Assembly (NCBI GenBank): GCA_046262595.1
Contig: JBHEMM010000024.1
Location: 384-36,753 of the forward strand
DNA length: 36,370 nucleotides
Origin: Vulcanimicrobiaceae bacterium
GTDB taxonomy: Bacteria; Vulcanimicrobiota; Vulcanimicrobiia; Vulcanimicrobiales; Vulcanimicrobiaceae
Reading direction: 5' to 3'
Of this stretch, positions 20,238 through 30,692 are shown one piece after another. A model generated the notes under the pieces. That model saw nothing but the letters and a program-made list of their open reading frames with translations, did no database searches and was not told the origin of the DNA. Every line of letters begins with the position of its first letter. Positions within the stretch are counted from its first letter, which is position 1. Made by a program: the position numbers and the translations under genes.

Positions 20238-22055
20238 CTAGTTCTCCGAAGCGCGAACGTTGATGACCGTCTGCAGATTTTGGTCCGCAGTCGAGATGCC
20301 GCGCGTGTTCGCTTCGAACGCGCGCTGCGCCACGATCATCTTCGTGAACTCGTCGGCCAGTGAAACGTTCGACTGTTCGAGAGAGCCGGCGATGATGGCG
20401 CCGAACCGTCCTTGGTTCCCTGTGCCGACCTGCGCGAGACCGGAGTTCGGGCTCTCCTGGAACTGGTTGCCGCCCACGCGGTGCAAGCCGTCCTCATTTT
20501 GGAACGTCGCAAGCGCTACTTGGCCAAGCGTGCGGCTTTGCCCGTTGGTGAACGCGCCGGAGATGGCACCGTCCTGCCCGATGGAGATGTTGGACAGAAT
20601 GCCGGCTTCGTAACCGTTCTGCGAAAGCACGGTTGCCGTATAGCCGCTGGTGCTCGCGGTCGCGCTCGCGCTCGAGGTTCCGGCCAGCGAGGCGGTGTTC
20701 GAGAAGTCGAGCCCGATCGCACCCGCCGTCGCGGGGCCGGCGCCGCTGCCCGTCGGCGCGACGGCGACGTTGCCATTGAGCAGTCCCCACGCCGTCACGT
20801 TGATTTCGTCGCCCGCGGCAATCGAAGCCGGTTGGCCCAAGGTGTGGACGTTCGTTGCGAGCGCCGCCCCGTTTACGCCGGTCGAGCTGGAGGTGTTGAT
20901 GAATTGCCCGTTCTGATCGTAGTACGCATATCCCAGCGTCGTGGGGTTCGAAGCGGTCGGCGTCGAGCCGTTCACCGCGGTGCCGTCGGTGAAGTACGCT
21001 TCGGTTTTCCAGCGCGTCGCCGGTGTATGCGCCGTTCCTTGCGCATCGGTCACCGAAGAAGGCAGCCCGGTCGTGGCGCCGGTGATCGTGATCGTGTCCG
21101 CCGTCGCCGCTGCCGGCTCGGGCGAAGCCAGCGTGAAGGTGGCGTTATCGAACGTCATCGTTGCGCCCGCCGCACCCTTGATCGTGTTGCCGTTTGCATC
21201 CGAGATCGCGTAGCCGAGGCCGGGACCATTGGAAGTGACCGTGATTGTTTGCGCCGCAGCGCCTGCGGCGACGCTGGTTCCGCTGATGTTGCCGTTCGCG
21301 GTGCTCACTTGCGAAGCGGCAGTCGCGCCCGTTGCATCCGGCACGTACTTGATGAACATTTGGTGCGCGTTGCCGAGCGAGTCGTAGATCGTTGTCGAAA
21401 TGGTGTCCGGCACGCCCTGGCCGGCGCCTTTGCCGGTGATGTTTCCTTGCTCTTCGACTTGCCACTGCGTTTGATCCAGATTACCGCCCAGCGCAATGTC
21501 GAACGCTTTGTCGCCCGCCGGGCCGAGCTTGTTGCCGAAACCGGTGCCGACCGCTTGCGACTGCAAGCCGAGTGGAATCGTGATATTTCCTAGCGCGCTA
21601 TTCGCGATAACGCCCTGCGAATTCGCGGTGTACCCTTGCACGGCAAGCCCCGAGGCCGGATCGTACAGCAGGCCGCTGGAGTTGAGCGAGAAGGCGCCGT
21701 CGCGCGTATACGTCGCGCCGCTGCTGCCGTCCACGTTGCGCAGCACGAAAAAGCCGTCGCCGTTGACGGCCAGGTCGGTGTTGATTCCCGTGGTTTGCAA
21801 GCCGCCCTGCGCGAAGTTCGTGTCGATGGAGTTCACCCGGACGCCCACGCCGACTTCCTGCGAATTGATGCCGCCGCGTGAAGACGTCGGCGCGCTGGAA
21901 AACGCCTGCGTTTGATAAAAAAGATCTGCAAACGTCATACGCTGGCCTTTGAAGCCGACCGTACCGGTGTTTGCGATGTCGTTGGAGATCATATCGATTT
22001 GATTCTGATAGGCGTTGATGCCCGAGATCCCCGTGAACAGCGAATCGAATGCCAT
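20238..22055 (-). CDS. flgE: Flagellar hook protein FlgE
   Basis: SLFTGISG.....DMISNDIANTGTVGFK, TDLAVNGDGFF, YTRDGAF, IYDSLGNAH, GSLEQSNVSLADEFTKMIVAQRAFEANTRGISTAD. Confidence 0.96.
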   Translation of the reverse strand: MAFDSLFTGISGINAYQNQIDMISNDIANTGTVGFKGQRMTFADLFYQTQAFSSAPTSSRGGINSQEVGVGVRVNSIDTNFAQGGLQTTGINTDLAVNGDGFFVLRNVDGSSGATYTRDGAFSLNSSGLLYDPASGLAVQGYTANSQGVIANSALGNITIPLGLQSQAVGTGFGNKLGPAGDKAFDIALGGNLDQTQWQVEEQGNITGKGAGQGVPDTISTTIYDSLGNAHQMFIKYVPDATGATAASQVSTANGNISGTSVAAGAAAQTITVTSNGPGLGYAISDANGNTIKGAAGATMTFDNATFTLASPEPAAATADTITITGATTGLPSSVTDAQGTAHTPATRWKTEAYFTDGTAVNGSTPTASNPTTLGYAYYDQNGQFINTSSSTGVNGAALATNVHTLGQPASIAAGDEINVTAWGLLNGNVAVAPTGSGAGPATAGAIGLDFSNTASLAGTSSASATASTSGYTATVLSQNGYEAGILSNISIGQDGAISGAFTNGQSRTLGQVALATFQNEDGLHRVGGNQFQESPNSGLAQVGTGNQGRFGAIIAGSLEQSNVSLADEFTKMIVAQRAFEANTRGISTADQNLQTVINVRASEN

Positions 22056-22114
22056 TCTTTGAAATGCCTTTCTTGATTTTTCGGCAGCGCGTCAGTCCTT
22101 CGGCGCGGCCGGTA

Positions 22115-22146
22115 TGCTTCTTCGATTCGTAAATCGGCCGGAAGCA
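22115..22146 (-). other. Structured element in the flgE leader (UACG-capped hairpin)
   Basis: Minus strand TGCTTC-cggc-CGATT-TACG-AATCG-aa-GAAGCA. Confidence 0.4.
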
Positions 22147-22162
22147 GAGTAAAAAAATGCCC

Positions 22163-22564
22163 TTAGGCGATGATCGCGGCGGAGTCGATGTTGGTGAAAA
22201 CGTTTTCTTTCATCGATTCTTGATCGACGGCGGTGATGACGGTGCGGTTTTTAATGCTGACCACCATCGCGACGTCGCGCAGCATGAACAACGATTGTTT
22301 CGCGCCTTTTTGTGCGGCTTTGTCGGCCATCACGTTCATGCGCGCGACATCGTCGCTGCTCAATTGAATGTTGCGCGATGCCAGGCGCTGCGCCGCATGT
22401 GCCGAGAACCTGAGCGGCTGAAGCGACGAGCCCGTTTGCTCCAGGACGGAGCGGAAGCTCGGCGTTCCCTGCGGTGGAATCTGGAGCGGCGTACCGGCGG
22501 GGCGCGGAGCGGGGCCGGGAATAATTCCCGGACGTCCGATACCCTTGAGATCGTTCGGATCCAC
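22163..22564 (-). CDS. Conserved flagellar operon protein (TIGR02530-like)
   Basis: LRFSAHAAQRLASRNI, KAAQKGAKQSL, VVSIKNRTVITAVD....ENVFTNIDSAAI; between flgD and flgE; probable GTG start 22564. Confidence 0.88.
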   Translation of the reverse strand: MDPNDLKGIGRPGIIPGPAPRPAGTPLQIPPQGTPSFRSVLEQTGSSLQPLRFSAHAAQRLASRNIQLSSDDVARMNVMADKAAQKGAKQSLFMLRDVAMVVSIKNRTVITAVDQESMKENVFTNIDSAAIIA

Positions 22565-22565
22565 G

Positions 22566-23033
22566 TTAACTGCCGATGCCGACGATTTCGTTCGTTGCAA
22601 AGAGCAGCGGCTGACCGTTGTTGTCGCTGATGACCTTGCCTGCGGAGTTGGTCATGCTGAAAAACGGCTGACCGTTCTGCACCGCAATGGAACTGACCGT
22701 GCCGCTTTGCGTCGCGGAGTTCCCCGTGCCGTCGGGCGTGATGACGGTCACTTTCTTTCCCAGAAGCGACGAGGCTTGCATCACCCCGAAGTTCGACTGG
22801 AAATTGGCAAATGCCGAGCTGAGATCGTTTTGCGCCTGCAGCGCGGAAAACTGCGCCAGCTGCGCGACGGACTGCGTGTCATCCATCGGCTTGAGCGGGT
22901 CTTGGTTTTGCAGTTCCGTTGTGAGCAGTTGCAAGAACTGCTGGGAGCCCATGACTTGGCCGTTCGCCGAAGCCGCCGAACTCGCGGGTGAGGTTTGCGG
23001 CGTCGCCGTGATCGCCGCGATACTGTTGGACAT
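22566..23033 (-). CDS. flgD: Hook capping protein FlgD
   Basis: Start moved to ATG 23033 (AGGAG RBS). FLQLLTTELQNQDPLKPMD....AQLAQFSAL, ASSLLGKKV. Confidence 0.95.
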   Translation of the reverse strand: MSNSIAAITATPQTSPASSAASANGQVMGSQQFLQLLTTELQNQDPLKPMDDTQSVAQLAQFSALQAQNDLSSAFANFQSNFGVMQASSLLGKKVTVITPDGTGNSATQSGTVSSIAVQNGQPFFSMTNSAGKVISDNNGQPLLFATNEIVGIGS

Positions 23034-23041
23034 AGCGTCTC

Positions 23042-24463
23042 CTATACGAGCGAGTTGATGACGAGCGATCCGGGCCCCGTTGCAATCGGAGGACCGAACC
23101 GTGCGTCGTAAACCGCCTGGTCGTCGTTGTGGTTGAGCCCGGCTTGCCATCCGCCGAGCTTGTAGTTGGCGTGCTGCTGGCCGGCCGTTTCGCGGTCGCC
23201 GGCGGAACCGGTTTGATTGCCGGAAACGCCGACCGAGAACGTTCCCAGCGTCAAGCCGGCATCGCCGAGTGCCCGCGCAAGTTGCGTGTGACCGGCAAGA
23301 AGCACATCCCGCATGCCCGCGTTCTGCGCGAGCACGTTTGCGGAGATGCTGTTGCCCGTCACCGTGATTTTGAGCGCGACTTCACCCAAGTGTTCGGGCT
23401 GTAAACGCAGACGGATCTGCGAAGACTCGCCGGAGCTTTGGATAACGATGCCTTTGACCATCTGTTCGATCACCGCATTCGCATCGACTGCGGTATACGG
23501 GGCGATCGGCCGCTCGGGAAGCGTCGCCGTTGCGTCCGCAGCCGGCGTATGCCCGGCGGCGGTCGCGGCTGCGGCGGCGGTTGAGCCGGGATCGGTCTGC
23601 ATTGCAAGAGCGGCTTGCGTTTGCAGCGGCGCCGCGCTTTGCCGTTGGAAATGATCGCCCGTTTGCATACCGGCTCCGCCGCCGTTTTGGCTTGGCGAAG
23701 CGATCAGCGCAACGAGCCGTTCGAACACCGCGGACGGCGAAGAGACGGCTGCCGAAGCACCGGTGGATCGGGATGCTTGCGGCGGCGCCGTTTCTGCGTT
23801 TTGCGCGTTCGCGCTGAACGCGCGTGTCAAGATGCGCGAAAGCACGTCGTTGACGGCACTGTCCGCGTTCGCAGCCGGAGCTGCGGGCGCATCTTGTGCC
23901 GGTGCGGCGATCGGCGTTTGACCGGGACTCGCGGCAGGCGCGGCCGCCTGGGCCGCTTGCGCTAGAAGAGCCCGCGCGAACGCGGCGACGTCGTCCTCGA
24001 TGAGAGCGGCATGCGCGTTTTTCGTTTGCGGGGCCGGGGGTTCTTTCGCCGGTTTGGCGTCCAAGAGATGTCCCGGGATTTCGTTCTTCTGCCCTGCGTT
24101 GTTTTTTGCCGTCGTGCCCGTGAGCGTTTCTAGGAGTCCTATCAATCGCTGTTCGAGTGTTGCGGCTTGCGGTGGACTCGTGCCGGGAGGCGCGAGGGCC
24201 GCGGTAAGTGCGCGCTGCAGCGTGCTGCGCGCATTCGCATCGCGCGTGCTGCCGGTCGCACGTAGCAGTGCGTTCGTCAGTTCTTTCGCGATGCTGCTCA
24301 CGAGTGGTGCCGCCGGTGCAGCGTTCGGGAGCAGTGCGGTCAGGTTCGATCCCAGCAGAGCCGCGAACTCGGTGGCGTTGCCGCGCAGTGCGCTCGTGAC
24401 CCCGCGTGGGAGCGCCATACCGCCGCCCTTGACGGCGGTGAGTTGGCTTAAAGAAAAGTCCAT
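23042..24463 (-). CDS. fliK: Hook-length control protein FliK
   Basis: Long Ala/Pro/Gln-rich N-terminal region, then IRLRLQPEHLGEVALKI..L..AL..AGL.LG.FSV; precedes flgD. Confidence 0.88.
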   Translation of the reverse strand: MDFSLSQLTAVKGGGMALPRGVTSALRGNATEFAALLGSNLTALLPNAAPAAPLVSSIAKELTNALLRATGSTRDANARSTLQRALTAALAPPGTSPPQAATLEQRLIGLLETLTGTTAKNNAGQKNEIPGHLLDAKPAKEPPAPQTKNAHAALIEDDVAAFARALLAQAAQAAAPAASPGQTPIAAPAQDAPAAPAANADSAVNDVLSRILTRAFSANAQNAETAPPQASRSTGASAAVSSPSAVFERLVALIASPSQNGGGAGMQTGDHFQRQSAAPLQTQAALAMQTDPGSTAAAAATAAGHTPAADATATLPERPIAPYTAVDANAVIEQMVKGIVIQSSGESSQIRLRLQPEHLGEVALKITVTGNSISANVLAQNAGMRDVLLAGHTQLARALGDAGLTLGTFSVGVSGNQTGSAGDRETAGQQHANYKLGGWQAGLNHNDDQAVYDARFGPPIATGPGSLVINSLV

Positions 24464-24516
24464 TACGTGTTGTATTCACCCCCTCTCGAGTGAAGGAAGA
24501 GAGACTCGTACCTTCC

Positions 24517-24544
24517 TCATCGGCACGCCGTGAGCGGAACGTTA
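24517..24544 (-). promoter_or_regulatory. Putative sigma28 promoter of fliK, embedded in the last codons of aroF
   Basis: TAAC-N16-GCCGATGA; the TGA of the -10 box is the aroF stop codon; near-identical to the cheY promoter. Confidence 0.6.
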
Positions 24545-25344
24545 GGGCGGCCCGCCCCCGCAAGAGACGCCAACAGCCGCATAAGGCGCTCGAACGCCGC
24601 AAAGTCGAGCGCCTGCTCGGCGTCGCAGAGCGCGGCGGCCGGTTCGGGATGCACCTCGATGATCGCGCCGTCCAATCCGGCGACCGCCGCGGCAAGGACG
24701 AGCGGCTCGATGAGGCTCGCGCGCCCGGTCGCATGGCTCGGGTCGGCAATGACCGGGAGATGCGTGAGTTCTTTGAGCCGCAGCGCTCCGGCCAGATCGA
24801 ACACGTTGCGTGTGTGCGGATCGAAGCCGCGAATGCCCCGCTCGCACAGGATGACGCTCGGGTTGCCTTCGACCAAAATATATTCGGCCGCATAAAGAAC
24901 CTCGTCCAAGGTGGCCGAGGCCGCGCGCTTGAGCAGCACCGGCTTGCCCGTGCGCGCCACCGCCTGCAGCAAGGTGAAGTTCTGCATGTTGCGCGCGCCG
25001 ATTTGGATTACGTCCACGCTGCGCGCCAGAATGGGCAACTGCGTTTCGGAGAGAGCTTCGACGACCGTAGGAATACCGGACGCGAGCCCAGCAGCGGAAA
25101 TGAGGCGTACGCCTTCTTCTCCCAGGCCCTGAAAGGCGTAGGGCGACGTGCGCGGCTTGTACGCGCCGCCCCGCAGCGCAACGGCACCGGCGCCGGCCAC
25201 GAACTGCGCCGTCCGCTCGATCTGCGCACGGCTTTCGATGGAGCACGGTCCCGCGATCATGCGGAACGTTCCGTCGCCGAACGCGGCGGTGCCGATCTGC
25301 ACGATCGAGCGTTGCTGCGGGCCCCTGCTTGCCAACTTGTACAT
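24517..25344 (-). CDS. aroF: DAHP synthase, type I-beta, catalytic barrel only
   Basis: Start ATG 25344 (MYKLASR) after GGGGA. MIAGPCSIES, LRGGAYKPRTSPYAFQGLG, QIGARNMQNF.LL, PVLLKR, ILCERGIRGF, THLPVIADPSHATG, IEVHPEP..ALCD..Q. Confidence 0.93.
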   Translation of the reverse strand: MYKLASRGPQQRSIVQIGTAAFGDGTFRMIAGPCSIESRAQIERTAQFVAGAGAVALRGGAYKPRTSPYAFQGLGEEGVRLISAAGLASGIPTVVEALSETQLPILARSVDVIQIGARNMQNFTLLQAVARTGKPVLLKRAASATLDEVLYAAEYILVEGNPSVILCERGIRGFDPHTRNVFDLAGALRLKELTHLPVIADPSHATGRASLIEPLVLAAAVAGLDGAIIEVHPEPAAALCDAEQALDFAAFERLMRLLASLAGAGRPNVPLTACR

Positions 25345-25363
25345 GCCATCCCCATTTGCAATC

Positions 25364-25390
25364 AAAAAACCGCCCCGGTAAGGGCGGCTT
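25364..25390 (-). terminator. Intrinsic (attenuator) terminator upstream of aroF
   Basis: Minus strand AAGCCGCCC-TTACCG-GGGCGG-TTTTTT. Confidence 0.85.
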
Positions 25391-25425
25391 CGGAAGTCGT
25401 TGAACGACGGACGAGCGCGCTGAAC

Positions 25426-25482
25426 TTACCGAAGATCTTCGCCGGGAAGCCACCACCAGCCGGTGCGCGCGAGCATTGTCAT
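25426..25482 (-). CDS. trpL: Trp attenuator leader peptide MTMLARTGWWWLPGEDLR (18 aa; not in ORF track)
   Basis: ATG ACA ATG CTC GCG CGC ACC GGC TGG TGG TGG CTT CCC GGC GAA GAT CTT CGG TAA; three tandem Trp codons at 25450-25458, followed by antiterminator arm and terminator. Confidence 0.85.
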   Translation of the reverse strand: MTMLARTGWWWLPGEDLR

Positions 25483-25489
25483 TCCAGCG

Positions 25490-25519
25490 ACTCTACCACG
25501 CGGTCCGCGCGTGTGTCAA
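25490..25519 (-). promoter_or_regulatory. sigma70/sigmaA-type promoter of trpL-aroF
   Basis: TTGACA (25519-25514), 18-nt spacer ending in TGg, TAGAGT (25495-25490); leader ATG follows 7 nt later. Confidence 0.75.
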
Positions 25520-26092
25520 TCAAACGAAAGCCATGGCGTTGCGCACGATCCGGGCGCCGTGCTCGCTCAAAATCGATTCCGGATGAAACTGTACACCGCT
25601 AACGGGCAGCGTACGATGGGAGAGCGCTTGAATGACGCCGTCCGAACTGCGCGCGACCACTTGAAGTTCTTGCGGCAGCGACGCATCCTCGACGCACAGC
25701 GAATGATAGCGCGTCGCCGTCAAAGGCGTGGGCAAGCCGGCGAACATGCCCGTTCCTTGATGAATGATCGCCGAAGTTTTTCCATGCATCGGAACCGGCG
25801 CGCGGACAACGTTTGCACCGTACGCCGCGCCGATTGCCTGCATCCCGAAGCACACGCCGAAAACCGGCGTGCCGTTCTGCGCAGCGCGTAAGATGAGATC
25901 CACAATCTGCGGCGTTTGCCCGGGGTTGCCCGGACCCGGACCGACGACGAGCGCACCGTACGCGCGCAGCGTTTCCGATCCCAGACGCGGATCGTCGCTG
26001 AGCACGATCTCCGGGTGCGTGCCGATCGATGCGAGCAACTGCACGACGTTATAGGTAAACGAGTCGAAGTTATCGATGAAAAGTATGTTCAT
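25520..26092 (-). CDS. trpG: Anthranilate synthase component II (class I glutamine amidotransferase, TrpG/PabA)
   Basis: Start moved to ATG 26092 (ATGA overlap with trpE): MNILFIDNFDSFTYNVVQ, GPGPGNP, GVCFGMQ, MHGKTS, TRYHSL, GVQFHPESILS. Confidence 0.92.
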   Translation of the reverse strand: MNILFIDNFDSFTYNVVQLLASIGTHPEIVLSDDPRLGSETLRAYGALVVGPGPGNPGQTPQIVDLILRAAQNGTPVFGVCFGMQAIGAAYGANVVRAPVPMHGKTSAIIHQGTGMFAGLPTPLTATRYHSLCVEDASLPQELQVVARSSDGVIQALSHRTLPVSGVQFHPESILSEHGARIVRNAMAFV

Positions 26093-27432
26093 AGCCCCAG
26101 CACTTCGCGGGCGATGCGCGTCTTGTGCATTACCTCGTCGTATTCGGCTTGCGGATCGCTGTCCGCAACGATTCCCGCGGACGCTTGCCAATAGGCAATG
26201 CCGTCGTGCACGTGCAAGCTGCGCAGCGTGATGCATGAATCGAAATCGCCGTTCCAGGCCCAGCGGCCGACGCTGCCGGCGTAAAAGCCGCGCGCTTGCG
26301 CTTCGAGATCGTCGATCAGCTGCATCGCGCGAATCTTCGGCGTGCCCGTCACCGTGCCGGCAGGAAAGCCCGCCTGAAAAAGATCCAAGCCGTCGCACCC
26401 GCCGCACAGCTCGCCTTGCAGGTCCGAGACGATGTGCATGACGTGACTGTACCGTTCGATCTCGAGCAGCTCCGTCGCCCGAATCGTCCCCGTGCGGCAC
26501 ACGCGCCCGAGATCGTTGCGGCCGAGATCCACCAGCATCACGTGCTCGGCGCGCTCTTTCTCGTTGCGCAGCAACTCGTCCGCAATCTCGATATCGCTGG
26601 CTTCGTCGGCGCCGCGCGGACGTGTGCCGGCCAGCGGGCGGATGCGCGCCCGCTGCCCTTCGAGCCGCACGAGGAACTCGGGTGAAGCGCCCAGCAGTTG
26701 TCCGAACGGCGTATCGACATAGAACATGTACGGCGAGGGGTTGGCCGAGCGGATCGCACGATACAGATCGAAGGCGCTCCCCTGAAGCGGCGCACAGAAG
26801 CGGATGCCGATTTGCAGTTGGTACACTTCTCCGTCGTTGATGAACTCTTTGACCTGCGCGACTCTCTCTAAAAAAGCGGCTTGCGTCATGGAGGCGTTCA
26901 TGGGCCCGGCGGCGCCGACGGCATGCGGAAGGCGCGGGCGGATGGTAAGGAGCCGCTGCACGTATTGCTCGATGCGCGCCTCGGCGGAGCCCTCGTCCGG
27001 CCCGCAGACCCAAATCGTGAGTTTGTCGGTGAAGTGATCGAAGACAAGCCACGTGAGCGGCGCGGCAACATACGCCGCGGGCATGGAGGGAACGGCCGGT
27101 CCGCGCGAGCGAAGTTTCGCATACGAGCGCGCCGCATCGTACGAAAACGCGACGAGCGCGCCGCCGATCGGCATGTCGGATGTCTCGTCGACGCGGTGGG
27201 CGCGCCAGAATCCGCGGATAGCATCGTACATCGCCGCATCATCGCCGAAGCTGCGGGCGTCGGCGTAATCGATACCGATGAACGAATATCGCGAGATGCG
27301 GCCCGCAGCGCTCTCGACGCTTTCAAGCAGGCACGATGCGCCGGCCGTGGCAAGTTCCGCGTACGCCGCGATCGGGGTGAGCGTGTCCGCCGAAATGGTC
27401 TTGCTGTGCGAGACCCGTACCGCCGTTTGCAT
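26089..27432 (-). CDS. trpE: Anthranilate synthase component I
   Basis: Start moved to ATG 27432. ADTLTPI, Trp-feedback motifs LLES and NPSPYM, GASPE.LV, RPLAGTRPRG, KERAEHVMLVDLGRND, YSHVMHIVS, FPAGTVTGTPKIRAM. Confidence 0.88.
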   Translation of the reverse strand: MQTAVRVSHSKTISADTLTPIAAYAELATAGASCLLESVESAAGRISRYSFIGIDYADARSFGDDAAMYDAIRGFWRAHRVDETSDMPIGGALVAFSYDAARSYAKLRSRGPAVPSMPAAYVAAPLTWLVFDHFTDKLTIWVCGPDEGSAEARIEQYVQRLLTIRPRLPHAVGAAGPMNASMTQAAFLERVAQVKEFINDGEVYQLQIGIRFCAPLQGSAFDLYRAIRSANPSPYMFYVDTPFGQLLGASPEFLVRLEGQRARIRPLAGTRPRGADEASDIEIADELLRNEKERAEHVMLVDLGRNDLGRVCRTGTIRATELLEIERYSHVMHIVSDLQGELCGGCDGLDLFQAGFPAGTVTGTPKIRAMQLIDDLEAQARGFYAGSVGRWAWNGDFDSCITLRSLHVHDGIAYWQASAGIVADSDPQAEYDEVMHKTRIAREVLGL

Positions 27433-27440
27433 CCGGCGCC

Positions 27441-28073
27441 CTACCGTTTTAGTTCGGGGTGCTCCTGCGTCAGCTGCGCCGCGTATGCCGCCGGCAAGTT
27501 TTCCAAAATCGCGCCCACGGAATCCGGCGGCATCAACGCGAAAATGCGGGCGACGTATGCTTCGGGAAGTTTCTGCACCACCTTCGCCGCAGCTTCGGAG
27601 TCCATCGCGCCCCACACGAGCGCCGTGCGGTGCATGCCGGCCGTGCCGTCCTGCGCTAAATCGGCGCTCACGACCGGTATCGCCGCCGCCGGGTTTGCGG
27701 CAATGCCGCCCGCAGGCTTGGACGCGGGCGCGACGGCCGATCCTTGCTGCGCTTGACTGAGTTGCGTCTGCAGCTGCGTGATCTGTTTATCGCGCTGTGC
27801 GATTTGCGAGCGCGCATCATTAACTTCTTTGCTCAAGGCGTCGATCTGCGCGCTCTGCGCGTTGAGCGTTCCCTGCTGCGCCGCCAGATCGAACGGCCGC
27901 GCGAGCGGTTTCAAGAACGGCGCATTGCGGACGGGCGCCGTCACGGGGCTGGCTGCAAGGAACGTGCGCGAGGGCGCCCACCAGAGCGCCAGCGTAACGA
28001 TCGCCGCGGCGGCGGCAGAATACATGACGCGCTTCCACGGAAACGGTTTTTTGCGGCGGCGGGTGACGATCAT
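27441..28073 (-). CDS. YlxF/MotE-like flagellar protein (TM helix, coiled coil, MgtE-N-like helical repeats)
   Basis: RTALVWGAMDSEAAAKVVQKL....VARIFALMPPDSVGAILENLP...AAQLT; canonical position after fliJ. Confidence 0.75.
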   Translation of the reverse strand: MIVTRRRKKPFPWKRVMYSAAAAAIVTLALWWAPSRTFLAASPVTAPVRNAPFLKPLARPFDLAAQQGTLNAQSAQIDALSKEVNDARSQIAQRDKQITQLQTQLSQAQQGSAVAPASKPAGGIAANPAAAIPVVSADLAQDGTAGMHRTALVWGAMDSEAAAKVVQKLPEAYVARIFALMPPDSVGAILENLPAAYAAQLTQEHPELKR

Positions 28074-28094
28074 CGGCTTGGGCCCCTCGGACGG

Positions 28095-28544
28095 TTAGGT
28101 TGCTGCATGGGCACGCGCGTGACGGCGGTTGTTGGAGTCGTCAAGCTCTCTTTGCTCTTCAGCCGCTTGCATCTGCCGGTGCTCTTCGAAGCGCCGCTCC
28201 TTCAGCTTCTCGATCACTTTGCGTTCACGGCTGGCGTCAAGCAGATCGAGACGCGCCCGTTCCGACGCGAGGCGGCACTGCGAAATAATGCCATGCTGCA
28301 TCGTCATGGACCGGTCCAGATACTCCAGATGCGCATAATGCGCGCGCAAGTCTTCGCTGGTGAAGTTGCGGTGACCATCGCGCAGACGCAGCGAATACTG
28401 CTTGAACTGCGCGTTTAGACGCGCGAGCGTGTCCTGGGCATCGCGCAAGTCGCGCATGCGCCCGGCGAGAAACAATTGTTTTTCATCCTCGATACGTTCG
28501 CGCTGTTCGAGGACGGGCTCGAGCGAAAACGCAAACCGCTTCAT
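28095..28544 (-). CDS. fliJ: Flagellar export protein FliJ
   Basis: MKRFAFSLEPVLEQRE..E, ERKVIEKLKERR, EQRELDD; follows fliI. Confidence 0.9.
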   Translation of the reverse strand: MKRFAFSLEPVLEQRERIEDEKQLFLAGRMRDLRDAQDTLARLNAQFKQYSLRLRDGHRNFTSEDLRAHYAHLEYLDRSMTMQHGIISQCRLASERARLDLLDASRERKVIEKLKERRFEEHRQMQAAEEQRELDDSNNRRHARAHAAT

Positions 28545-29866
28545 CAGGCGATGCCCAGCAAGCCGCTGTGCGCTTGTTCGAACGTGGCGGTTTCGTAGAT
28601 ATCTTGTTTGAGATAATGCCGCACCGATTCGATTTTCGAGAGCGCGAGATCGACGCGCGGATTGCTTCCTTGCACGTACGCGCCGATATTGATCAAGTCT
28701 TCCGCCTCGCGGTACGTTGAAAGCACGTCCCGAACCGCGGATGCCGCCGAGGAGTGATTCTGATCCACGACATCGGGCATGACGCGGCTTACGCTGGCGA
28801 GCACGTCGATAGCGGGGTAATGGTTCGCAGCCGCAAGTTTTCGCGAAAGCACGATATGACCGTCCAGGATCGAGCGCACGGCATCCGCGACGGGTTCGTT
28901 CATGTCATCGCCGTCAACGAGCACCGAATAAAGGCCGGTGATGGTTCCCGTCTGCGCCGTGCCGGCGCGCTCGAGCAACTTCGGCAGCATGGCAAAGACC
29001 GACGGCGTGTATCCGCGCGTTGTGGTCGGCTCGCCGATCGCCAGACCGACTTCCCGCTGCGCCATGGCAAAGCGCGTCACACTGTCCATCATGAACATCA
29101 CGTCCAAGCCTTGATCGCGAAAGTACTCGGCGATGGTGGTCGCGACGAATGCCGCTTTAATGCGCACAAGCGCGGGCTGATCGCTGGTTGAAACCACCAC
29201 GACGCTGCGGCGCAGCCCCTCTTCTCCCAAATCCCGTTCGATGAAGTCGCGGACTTCTTTGCCGCGCTCGCCGATGAGCGCAATGACGTTGACGTCGGCC
29301 GACGTATTGCGCGCGATCATTCCTAAAATCGTCGATTTGCCGACGCCGCTTCCGGCGAAGACGCCGGCACGCTGGCCTTTGCCGCACGTGAGGAGCCCAT
29401 CGATCGCGCGGATGCCCAGCGCCAGCGGCTGGGTGATGCGCCGGCGCGAGAGCGCGGGCGGCGGTGAGGCGGCAATCTGCGCGCGGCGCCCCGCGAAGAT
29501 GCGGCCGTGGCCGTCGATCGGATGGCCCAGGCCGTCCAAAACGCGGCCGAGCAGGTCGTCCGTAACGCCGATTTCGAGCGGTTTACCGAGCGTCACCACT
29601 TCGCTGCCGGCGCCGATACCCATCAGGTCGCCCAGCGGCATAATCAGCACTTTGTTATCGCGAAAGCCGACCACTTCGGCGAGCACCGGTTCGGCCGTGC
29701 GTTTATACTGGATGTGGCACGTCTCGCCGATCGCCATGTGCGGCCCCAGCGACTCGATAACCACGCCGATGAGCTGGCGCACTTTGCCGTTCTGCCGCAT
29801 CAGGTCGACCGAATCGACGTCGCCGATGTATTTGTCCGCGCTGAATACGGGCAGCCCGGCCGTCAT
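28544..29866 (-). CDS. fliI: Flagellum-specific ATPase FliI
   Basis: Start moved to ATG 29866. GIRAIDGLLTCGKGQR.G.FAGSGVGKST, ALIGERGKEV, MDSVTRFAMAQREVGLA.GEP, ILDGHIVLSR.LA...HYPAID. Confidence 0.97.
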   Translation of the reverse strand: MTAGLPVFSADKYIGDVDSVDLMRQNGKVRQLIGVVIESLGPHMAIGETCHIQYKRTAEPVLAEVVGFRDNKVLIMPLGDLMGIGAGSEVVTLGKPLEIGVTDDLLGRVLDGLGHPIDGHGRIFAGRRAQIAASPPPALSRRRITQPLALGIRAIDGLLTCGKGQRAGVFAGSGVGKSTILGMIARNTSADVNVIALIGERGKEVRDFIERDLGEEGLRRSVVVVSTSDQPALVRIKAAFVATTIAEYFRDQGLDVMFMMDSVTRFAMAQREVGLAIGEPTTTRGYTPSVFAMLPKLLERAGTAQTGTITGLYSVLVDGDDMNEPVADAVRSILDGHIVLSRKLAAANHYPAIDVLASVSRVMPDVVDQNHSSAASAVRDVLSTYREAEDLINIGAYVQGSNPRVDLALSKIESVRHYLKQDIYETATFEQAHSGLLGIA

Positions 29867-29867
29867 A

Positions 29868-30692
29868 TCAGCTCGCTTGCGCCGGGGCGTTGATGATCGG
29901 CGGTTCGCTCGAGGGAGCGACCGAGAGCGGCTCCTCGACGGCGAGCAGCCGGCGCACTTGACGCAGCTGCGTGGAAATTTTCGCGTCGATCGTTCCCGAC
30001 TCCGTGTCGATGACCACGCCGCCGCGGTCCACGCGCTGATCTTCGACCAGCCGCAGATTATCAATGTCGTTCATGGACATCAGGCGGTCGCGGTGATCCC
30101 GCATCAGCGCAATGTCGGCCGGGTGCACGCGGACCGTAACGGTTTCACGCGTGACCAGACGCGAGATCGCGGATCGCGCCATTTCCAGCACGGTTTCCGG
30201 CTGCACCAGAATGTGCGCGTTGAGAATGCGCTCGCAGACGTGCAAAGCAAGTCGCACGATCTCCGGTTCGGCTCCTTCGATGATCTTGTAGCGCTCGACG
30301 CGCGCCATTTCGACCAGCCCGCGCATCGTTTCCAGCATCTCGTCCATCTCGGCACCGGCGGCAGCGCGGCCATCGCCCATGCCTTGGTCGAAGCCGCTTT
30401 GCCGCGCCGACGATTCGATCTCGGCGACGCGCGCGAGCCCGTCGTCGACGAGCTGCAGTGCGCGCTCGCGCGCGTCTTCCAAAAGACGGGCTGCGTCCGC
30501 GGATGCATCGTCTACCAGTTGCGCTGCCTCGGCGCGCGCCGCTTCAGCGTCGATCTGCGGCAGCGCCTCTGCGGCGTACGGCGCGGGCGGCGCGTCGGAA
30601 TATTCGAAGCTGTGCGGCTGCGCGTGTTGCGTCCGGGGCTTCATCTGAAACGCTTCGTCCGTTACGCGCGCGCCTTTTACCACTCTGCCCAC
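29868..30692 (-). CDS. fliH: Flagellar assembly protein FliH
   Basis: AxxxGxxxGxxxG (ARQSGFDQGMGDG), VTVRVHPAD, D..VDRGGVVIDTESGTIDA.I.TQL; lies between fliG and fliI. Confidence 0.92.
   Translation of the reverse strand: MGRVVKGARVTDEAFQMKPRTQHAQPHSFEYSDAPPAPYAAEALPQIDAEAARAEAAQLVDDASADAARLLEDARERALQLVDDGLARVAEIESSARQSGFDQGMGDGRAAAGAEMDEMLETMRGLVEMARVERYKIIEGAEPEIVRLALHVCERILNAHILVQPETVLEMARSAISRLVTRETVTVRVHPADIALMRDHRDRLMSMNDIDNLRLVEDQRVDRGGVVIDTESGTIDAKISTQLRQVRRLLAVEEPLSVAPSSEPPIINAPAQAS

Follow-up and report, generated by a model that had tools for sequence, protein, structure and literature searches.

Attenuation at aroR-aroF of Corynebacterium glutamicum was reportedly studied by Neshat in 2014. 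The aroR leader reads Phe-Tyr-Phe and a response to Phe has been reported for it (Mentz 2013, PMC4046766; review PMC11802643). In Acholeplasma, the motif uORFC-13-1, which is known as a prediction only, consists of a promoter, an upstream ORF (uORF) and an intrinsic terminator directly before aroF (PMC8632094), and aroH and aroF of Shewanella are listed with candidate elements (PMC2659441). Trp codons are read by the trpL attenuators, i.e., the E. coli type (RF00513) and the Corynebacterium/Streptomyces type with tandem UGG before trp genes of Actinobacteria (PMC1262725). In E. coli, aroH encodes the Trp-controlled DAHP synthase isozyme, which is repressed through TrpR (PMC11802643).

The window, i.e., the whole stretch of 36,370 nucleotides that was analysed, comes from a Vulcanimicrobiaceae bacterium and carries a cassette with a Trp leader before aroF. 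Like aroR-aroF, the cassette has a short leader peptide with aromatic codons before a DAHP synthase gene, and stalling is known to raise transcription there and predicted to do so here. It is set apart from aroR by its codons, as the window leader codes for three Trp and among the aromatic residues for Trp only, with zero Phe or Tyr codons. With uORFC-13-1 it shares the promoter, uORF and intrinsic terminator directly before aroF, whereas that motif has Phe codons and a ribosome-binding site and the window cassette has Trp codons, probably a leaderless start and a host from another phylum. Two to three tandem UGG codons, a GC-rich terminator with a U tract and an overlapping antiterminator are common to the window and both types of trpL attenuator, but these precede trpE, trp operons or trpS, while the window cassette lies behind trpEG and before a DAHP synthase gene. 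As in the case of E. coli aroH, Trp would set the supply of one DAHP synthase paralogue, though by predicted attenuation instead of a repressor; TrpR, TRAP and T-box were searched for in the assembly (89.7% complete) and none was found.

The preliminary description of this locus had called the placement unusual. The position behind trpEG and before aroF is confirmed, although DAHP synthase attenuators, Phe-based ones, were already in print. The literature search turned up no description of an attenuator from this phylum, of a Trp-only leader ahead of a stand-alone DAHP synthase or of a terminator that lies within the trpE coding sequence; most subscription journals, which hold the large attenuator surveys, lay outside its scope, so that this is weak evidence of absence. 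In Rfam, Trp_leader (RF00513) did not match the window up to an E value of 10, the five sub-threshold matches of the window search include no Trp leader, and the best-scoring relative among 11 loci reached 25.8 bits for RF00513, below the gathering cut-off of 41. The element would work like trpL, is placed like aroR and stays below the cut-off of any Rfam family.

The cassette and its conservation

All parts of the cassette lie on the minus strand between trpG and aroF, as follows:

25520..27432, minus strand: trpE-trpG, upstream of the cassette and predicted to be outside attenuator control
25490..25519, minus strand: sigma70-type promoter, with TTGACA at 25519-25514, an 18-nt spacer and an extended -10 (TG and TAGAGT, the latter at 25495-25490)
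25426..25482, minus strand: leader ORF of 18 aa, MTMLARTGWWWLPGEDLR, with its ATG at 25482, 7 nt past the -10, and a TAA stop ending at 25426
25450..25458, minus strand: three Trp control codons (TGG, codons 9-11)
25415..25470, minus strand: predicted upstream helix of the minimum-energy fold, GCGCGC at 25470-25465 with GCGCGC at 25420-25415, plus inner hairpins
25425..25433, minus strand: antiterminator arm TTCGGTAAG over the leader stop codon (family consensus CCGGTRAG)
25364..25388, minus strand: intrinsic terminator, GCCGCCC at 25388-25382, TTACCG, GGGCGG at 25375-25370 and T6 at 25369-25364
24517..25344, minus strand: aroF, a 275-aa type I-beta DAHP synthase, the predicted regulated gene

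The promoter, the 18-aa ORF and the terminator that had been proposed for this site were all found at these coordinates, with TTGACA beginning one base past the trpG stop (25520) and the terminator standing between the leader and aroF. The proposed complementarity also holds, the arm pairing with CTTACCGGG (25382-25374), i.e., the terminator loop and arms, through 7 Watson-Crick and 2 G-U pairs. The genes were named by protein matches (DAHP synthase, TrpG-type, TrpE-type); the window TrpE scores below the equivalog cut-offs, with trpE_most as its best match.

Taken alone, the promoter is not significant, with 1 promoter-like site in 22000-30000 vs 1.5 expected in shuffles, and a simple terminator scan did not list the cassette terminator. 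The strict combination of a promoter, a near-start ATG and a short ORF occurs at 3 sites genome-wide, one of which, the window leader, has WW; in 8 Markov surrogates of the genome taken together, the same pattern came up twice, both times without WW. That the cassette is genuine and not a product of chance is decided by conservation. A protein search with the window's DAHP synthase covered 61 genomes, and the upstream DNA was inspected at the 30 best loci. The 15 best matches from published genomes (the window included; one more top locus, from an unpublished genome, was omitted) were ranked on protein similarity alone, with the leader not a criterion, and all 15 have the promoter, an aromatic leader, the arm YYGGTRAG, a GCGC block and the terminator. 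At least two Trp codons are present in 14 of them and the remaining one reads AWYF. The next 14 of the 30 loci are other paralogues with no cassette directly before their DAHP synthase domain, and on a quick tree of 61 proteins the short enzymes with an attenuator group together in a single clade (support 98).

A sequence-only model built from the 15 leaders matched in 86 of 151 family genomes at E 0.01, a tally that takes in unpublished genomes and weak chance matches. The fetched loci (30 from the leader model, 60 further stretches and 15 from the protein search) hold 59 distinct aroF-linked copies; promoter and leader were called in 57, each of these promoters having the form TTGAC-17/18 nt-TAnnnT, and the counts are selected ones because copies past the first 15 were found through leader similarity. 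Parsing succeeded for 51 copies, while 8 were omitted since the script could not place their terminator or promoter. The ATG lies 6-10 nt past the -10 in 51/51, which makes leaderless translation probable; transcription would start at or beside the leader ATG. A Trp codon is found within residues 4-16 of all 51 leaders, and 46 have at least two. Comparison of the relatives' aroF upstream regions, a check that the original proposal had named, found the Trp codons and both stems kept.

The named carriers belong to Vulcanimicrobiota (Eremiobacterota). A pattern scan of named genomes gave at least 80 loci, and among the matches listed 14 have leader, terminator and aroF, 12 of them titled Vulcanimicrobiota, Eremiobacteraeota or families within and 2 bearing other depositor labels. 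The other 66 of the 80 listed, many from Streptomyces, are without leader and aroF and were discarded as chance. Two loci titled Betaproteobacteria (L167, L193) carry the cassette and aroF at 67-71% identity and are probably mislabelled bins. The phylum-wide search with a second model hit 19 of the 71 genomes within the family and 2 of the 79 beyond it; one of these two is a real Leu/Val/Ile leader from the sister family and the other is without a terminator.

Leaders of many relatives mix Tyr, Trp and Phe codons, unlike the Trp-only leader of the window. The 23 leaders behind trpG average 2.6 Trp, all with adjacent WW, and the 28 of 51 copies without trpG seen upstream average 2.0 Trp, 1.75 Tyr and 1.5 Phe. 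The idea that codon content is tuned to gene context, i.e., Trp-rich behind trpG and mixed when alone, was dropped, because the mixed leaders that stand alone fall into a single clade (support 100, quick tree), hence about one event, and mixed leaders also occur behind trpG.

Antiterminator pairing and the predicted switch

RNAalifold on 15 copies returned, unprompted, a consensus in which the arm is paired with the terminator loop. Across the eight antiterminator pairs of 52 copies, 94.4% of the cells pair and 11 cells are changed on both sides; 0 of 500 shuffles reached either value, bearing in mind that the copies are related, not independent, and that kinship alone can beat shuffles. Controls with a slid partner brought the pairing down to 32-61%. 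Most of the covariation comes from one pair (G-C 27, G-U 12, A-U 8). The stem covariation that had been suggested as a check is seen for the antiterminator in the 52 copies. The arm occurs in all three leader reading frames (27, 15 and 8 of 50 by a simple pattern that mis-picked a few rows), so the constraint acts on the RNA and not on the peptide. The position of the leader stop varies, being inside the arm, just behind it or approximately 30 nt beyond.

We regard it as very probable that the cassette is a classical ribosome-read transcription attenuator which raises DAHP synthase when charged tRNA-Trp runs short, a function that we infer from the arrangement and pairing of its parts. A ribosome at the leader stop would cover the arm and the terminator would form. 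While a ribosome is held at the Trp codons, the arm would be free to capture the terminator loop and arms ahead of completion of the terminator, and transcription would read through to aroF. With no ribosome, the upstream helix would hold the arm and termination would be the default. Both trpEG upstream and trpD-C-F-B-A on another contig would be outside the control of the attenuator. Translational control of aroF was rejected, since approximately 20 nt separate the U tract from the aroF start, which is part of neither helix. The mechanism would be classical; the element adds an RNA family unmatched in Rfam in a mostly uncultured phylum and an instance in which the supply of DAHP synthase is predicted to depend on Trp alone, with the trp genes unattenuated.

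Folding with a ribosome mask, likewise named earlier as a check, was applied to 51 copies (one was skipped) with transcripts ended just before the U tract. The antiterminator exceeds a probability of 0.5 in 1/51 copies with no ribosome, in 35/51 with a stall at the first Trp and in 40/51 with a stall at the last Trp, and, by construction, in 0/51 with the ribosome at the stop; five of the 51 rows, in which the arm was mis-picked, are counted as misses. With no ribosome, the arm is paired upstream with a mean probability of 0.82 over the 51 copies. In these folds the leader switches in the predicted direction in unfinished transcripts, though mostly not at full-length equilibrium, where the terminator is still favoured under Trp stall in 36-43 of 51 copies; hence the switch would have to be kinetic, with co-transcriptional trapping needed. 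The mechanism of the preliminary description holds in silico, while the probable leaderless start and the upstream helix that holds the arm had been missed.

The same equilibrium result, i.e., that the full-length fold is the terminator in every state for most copies, is what would be expected of a plain terminator of the flagellar-trpE-trpG transcript, with the ORF and its Trp codons incidental and aroF expressed by leak-through. The hairpin sits just behind trpG and may well end upstream transcripts too. However, a promoter that belongs to the cassette precedes the hairpin, the cassette stays with aroF in the copies without trpG seen upstream (28/51), the position of the aromatic codons is constant and there is covariation between the arm and the terminator loop, which together make this explanation highly improbable.

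Cut before the U tract, with the terminator stem complete, the antiterminator of the window copy falls to 0.19-0.51. When transcripts end at 25376-25371, the arm is paired with the terminator at 0.49-1.00 under Trp stall, at 0 with the ribosome at the stop and unevenly, at 0.16-0.93, without a ribosome. By this model the window copy is among the weaker switches in the set. The element could be a working attenuator in the family and a copy decayed towards always-off in the window: the first base of its arm is U instead of the C found in 49 of 52 copies, few copies have a switch score as low and the neighbouring trpE attenuator was apparently deleted in this lineage. Yet the promoter, the three Trp codons, the stop position and both helices are intact, a G-U pair is still possible after the change to U, and for as long as the terminator is incomplete the antiterminator prevails, so that we judge decay of this copy to be very unlikely.

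DAHP synthases and trp genes of the genome

The N-terminal domain of such DAHP synthases carries feedback control. The alignment of the window enzyme to the 338-aa structure 1rzm begins at residue 69 of the latter, and the enzyme falls into the same length class as 1zco and 1vs1, from which it follows that the N-terminal regulatory domain is absent. Judged by this domain content, the enzyme would not be subject to feedback inhibition, and since the usual feedback domain appears to be missing, attenuation may be the main control of DAHP synthase. The same genome has a second DAHP synthase, of 287 aa (contig C8, 42340-43203, plus strand), which again lacks the N-terminal domain and is not preceded by a leader; in the copy that a relative (L029) has at this place the domain appears to be retained. 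The third DAHP synthase of the genome is a 545-base fragment, and no fusion of prephenate dehydratase and DAHP synthase (PDT-DAHP synthase) was found in the window's assembly.

The window trpE had been described as having no leader, in contrast to aroF. The 8-nt gap between the stop of the upstream gene (27441) and the trpE ATG (27432) is real and most relatives' trpE genes are alike, but the surprise was partly overstated, as close relatives do have a leader. A survey drew 69 trpE loci from 118 genomes with a match, namely the 29 best plus 40 taken from lower ranks; 65 were anchored and a Trp leader was called at 13 of these, 10 plausible and 3 judged chance. Most trpE genes examined are without a leader, so the contrast of trpE and aroF holds broadly. 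The trpD-C-F-B-A cluster on contig C39 begins approximately 30 nt behind a ribosomal-protein gene, which leaves no room for a leader; trpC, trpF, trpA and the ribosomal-protein gene are putative names given by sequence motifs.

In some relatives trpE is preceded by the same RNA scaffold as aroF. Compared with a relative that shares the upstream gene, the window misses approximately 90 nt at 27390-27441 (minus strand), and at the join the ATG that stands where a leader would be runs directly into the 3' arm of the former terminator. One genome of the same genus has the identical join. The start of the window trpE looks like a deletion scar; deletion would be the simplest reading of this alignment. 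The window trpE is therefore probably without a leader because one was deleted, while close relatives keep theirs.

In eight relatives (L266, L268, L273, L274, L276, L280, L281 and L106) trpE can be read in an open frame from a GTG at the arm. This GTG overlaps the leader stop in the six relatives with a leader called; among the eight, one has an N gap and one an ATG instead of GTG. The distance from the start at the arm to a conserved Asp codon further on is exactly 87 nt in 8/8, and in 7/8 no later in-frame start was found behind the terminator. From the open frame, the fixed 87 nt and the missing later start, the trpE terminator of these relatives seems to be inside the coding sequence. The spacing in the aroF leaders of six of these eight genomes varies (41-48 nt). 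At least 40 bp are expected between an attenuating leader and its gene (PMC4833913), an expectation that the relatives' trpE arrangement would break, and this attenuator with its terminator inside coding sequence offers a compact test of termination vs re-initiation.

We lean, by a small measure, towards a history in which Trp control moved from the trp genes to the shikimate entry. An ancestral pair of attenuators, at trpE and aroF, would have lost the trpE one by a clean deletion, leaving the feedback-free DAHP synthase as the only Trp-sensing step, and the relatives would have kept a trpE attenuator with its start over the leader stop and its terminator in the coding sequence.

Other genes behind the same scaffold and the flagellar neighbourhood

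The scaffold is also found with control codons that match the gene behind it, i.e., Trp before trpE and trpD (WWW before the latter in relatives), Phe/Tyr before the PDT-DAHP synthase fusion, Met/Cys before a periplasmic-binding-type gene and Leu/Val/Ile before an aminotransferase-like gene in the sister family. These form a natural series of one RNA scaffold with different control codons before different genes. Loci with other codons on the same scaffold are L090, L093, L094, L105; L108; L092; L100; and L260, with gene names assigned by eye. The fusions of prephenate dehydratase, (ACT) and DAHP synthase, approximately 600 aa long (L017, L019-L022, L025, L026, L028, L082), each have a Tyr/Phe-rich leader and a terminator; such leaders stand before the fusions at 9/9 parsed loci, 2 of the 11 loci being unparsed.

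This change of control codons with the downstream gene bears on whether the element senses charged tRNA-Trp specifically or acts as a general sensor of translation stalls or of the nascent peptide, responding to free Trp, antibiotics or elongation rate. Masks at some non-Trp codons likewise weaken the window terminator in the fold, so any stall before the arm could open it, and parts of the leader peptide are conserved inside subclades. Against such a sensor stand not only the matching codons but also the peptide itself, which ranges from 17 to 30 residues, varies in its frame over the arm and retains only the aromatic block, and the fact that for Tyr and Phe either synonymous codon is freely used (TAT 37, TAC 33, TTT 33, TTC 26). 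We consider a general sensor quite unlikely and continue to prefer an attenuator that reads charged tRNA-Trp.

Further occurrences of the scaffold are a CCC-Cys leader before a probable tRNA gene and, ahead of an MFS-like gene, a leader in which no run of control codons is present. On contig C8 (minus strand, approximately 21330-21130), a second promoter with a short ORF, MHLLLSATSSYYGRSTSSRLFRCLP, and a strong terminator precedes a 248-aa protein, for which no Pfam or PDB match was found.

The block trpE-trpG-leader-aroF (24517-27432, minus strand) is embedded in a flagellar cluster, with fliI-fliJ-(MgtE_N-like gene) on one side and a FliK-like gene and flgD on the other, and this linkage recurs in relatives. 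At the aroF end of the block lies one further feature:

24517..24544, minus strand: sigma28-like site ahead of the FliK-like gene (TAACGTT...GCCGATGA), with its end on the aroF stop

Its motif GCCGATRA is present at the aroF stop in 27/27 loci with the FliK-like gene next and in 1/25 others. With such a site, transcription of the hook genes would not depend on the attenuator, and for this reason a coupling of the hook genes to Trp was dropped. A similar sigma28-like site at 28070-28097 (minus strand) lies over the first ATG of the 210-aa MgtE_N-like gene.
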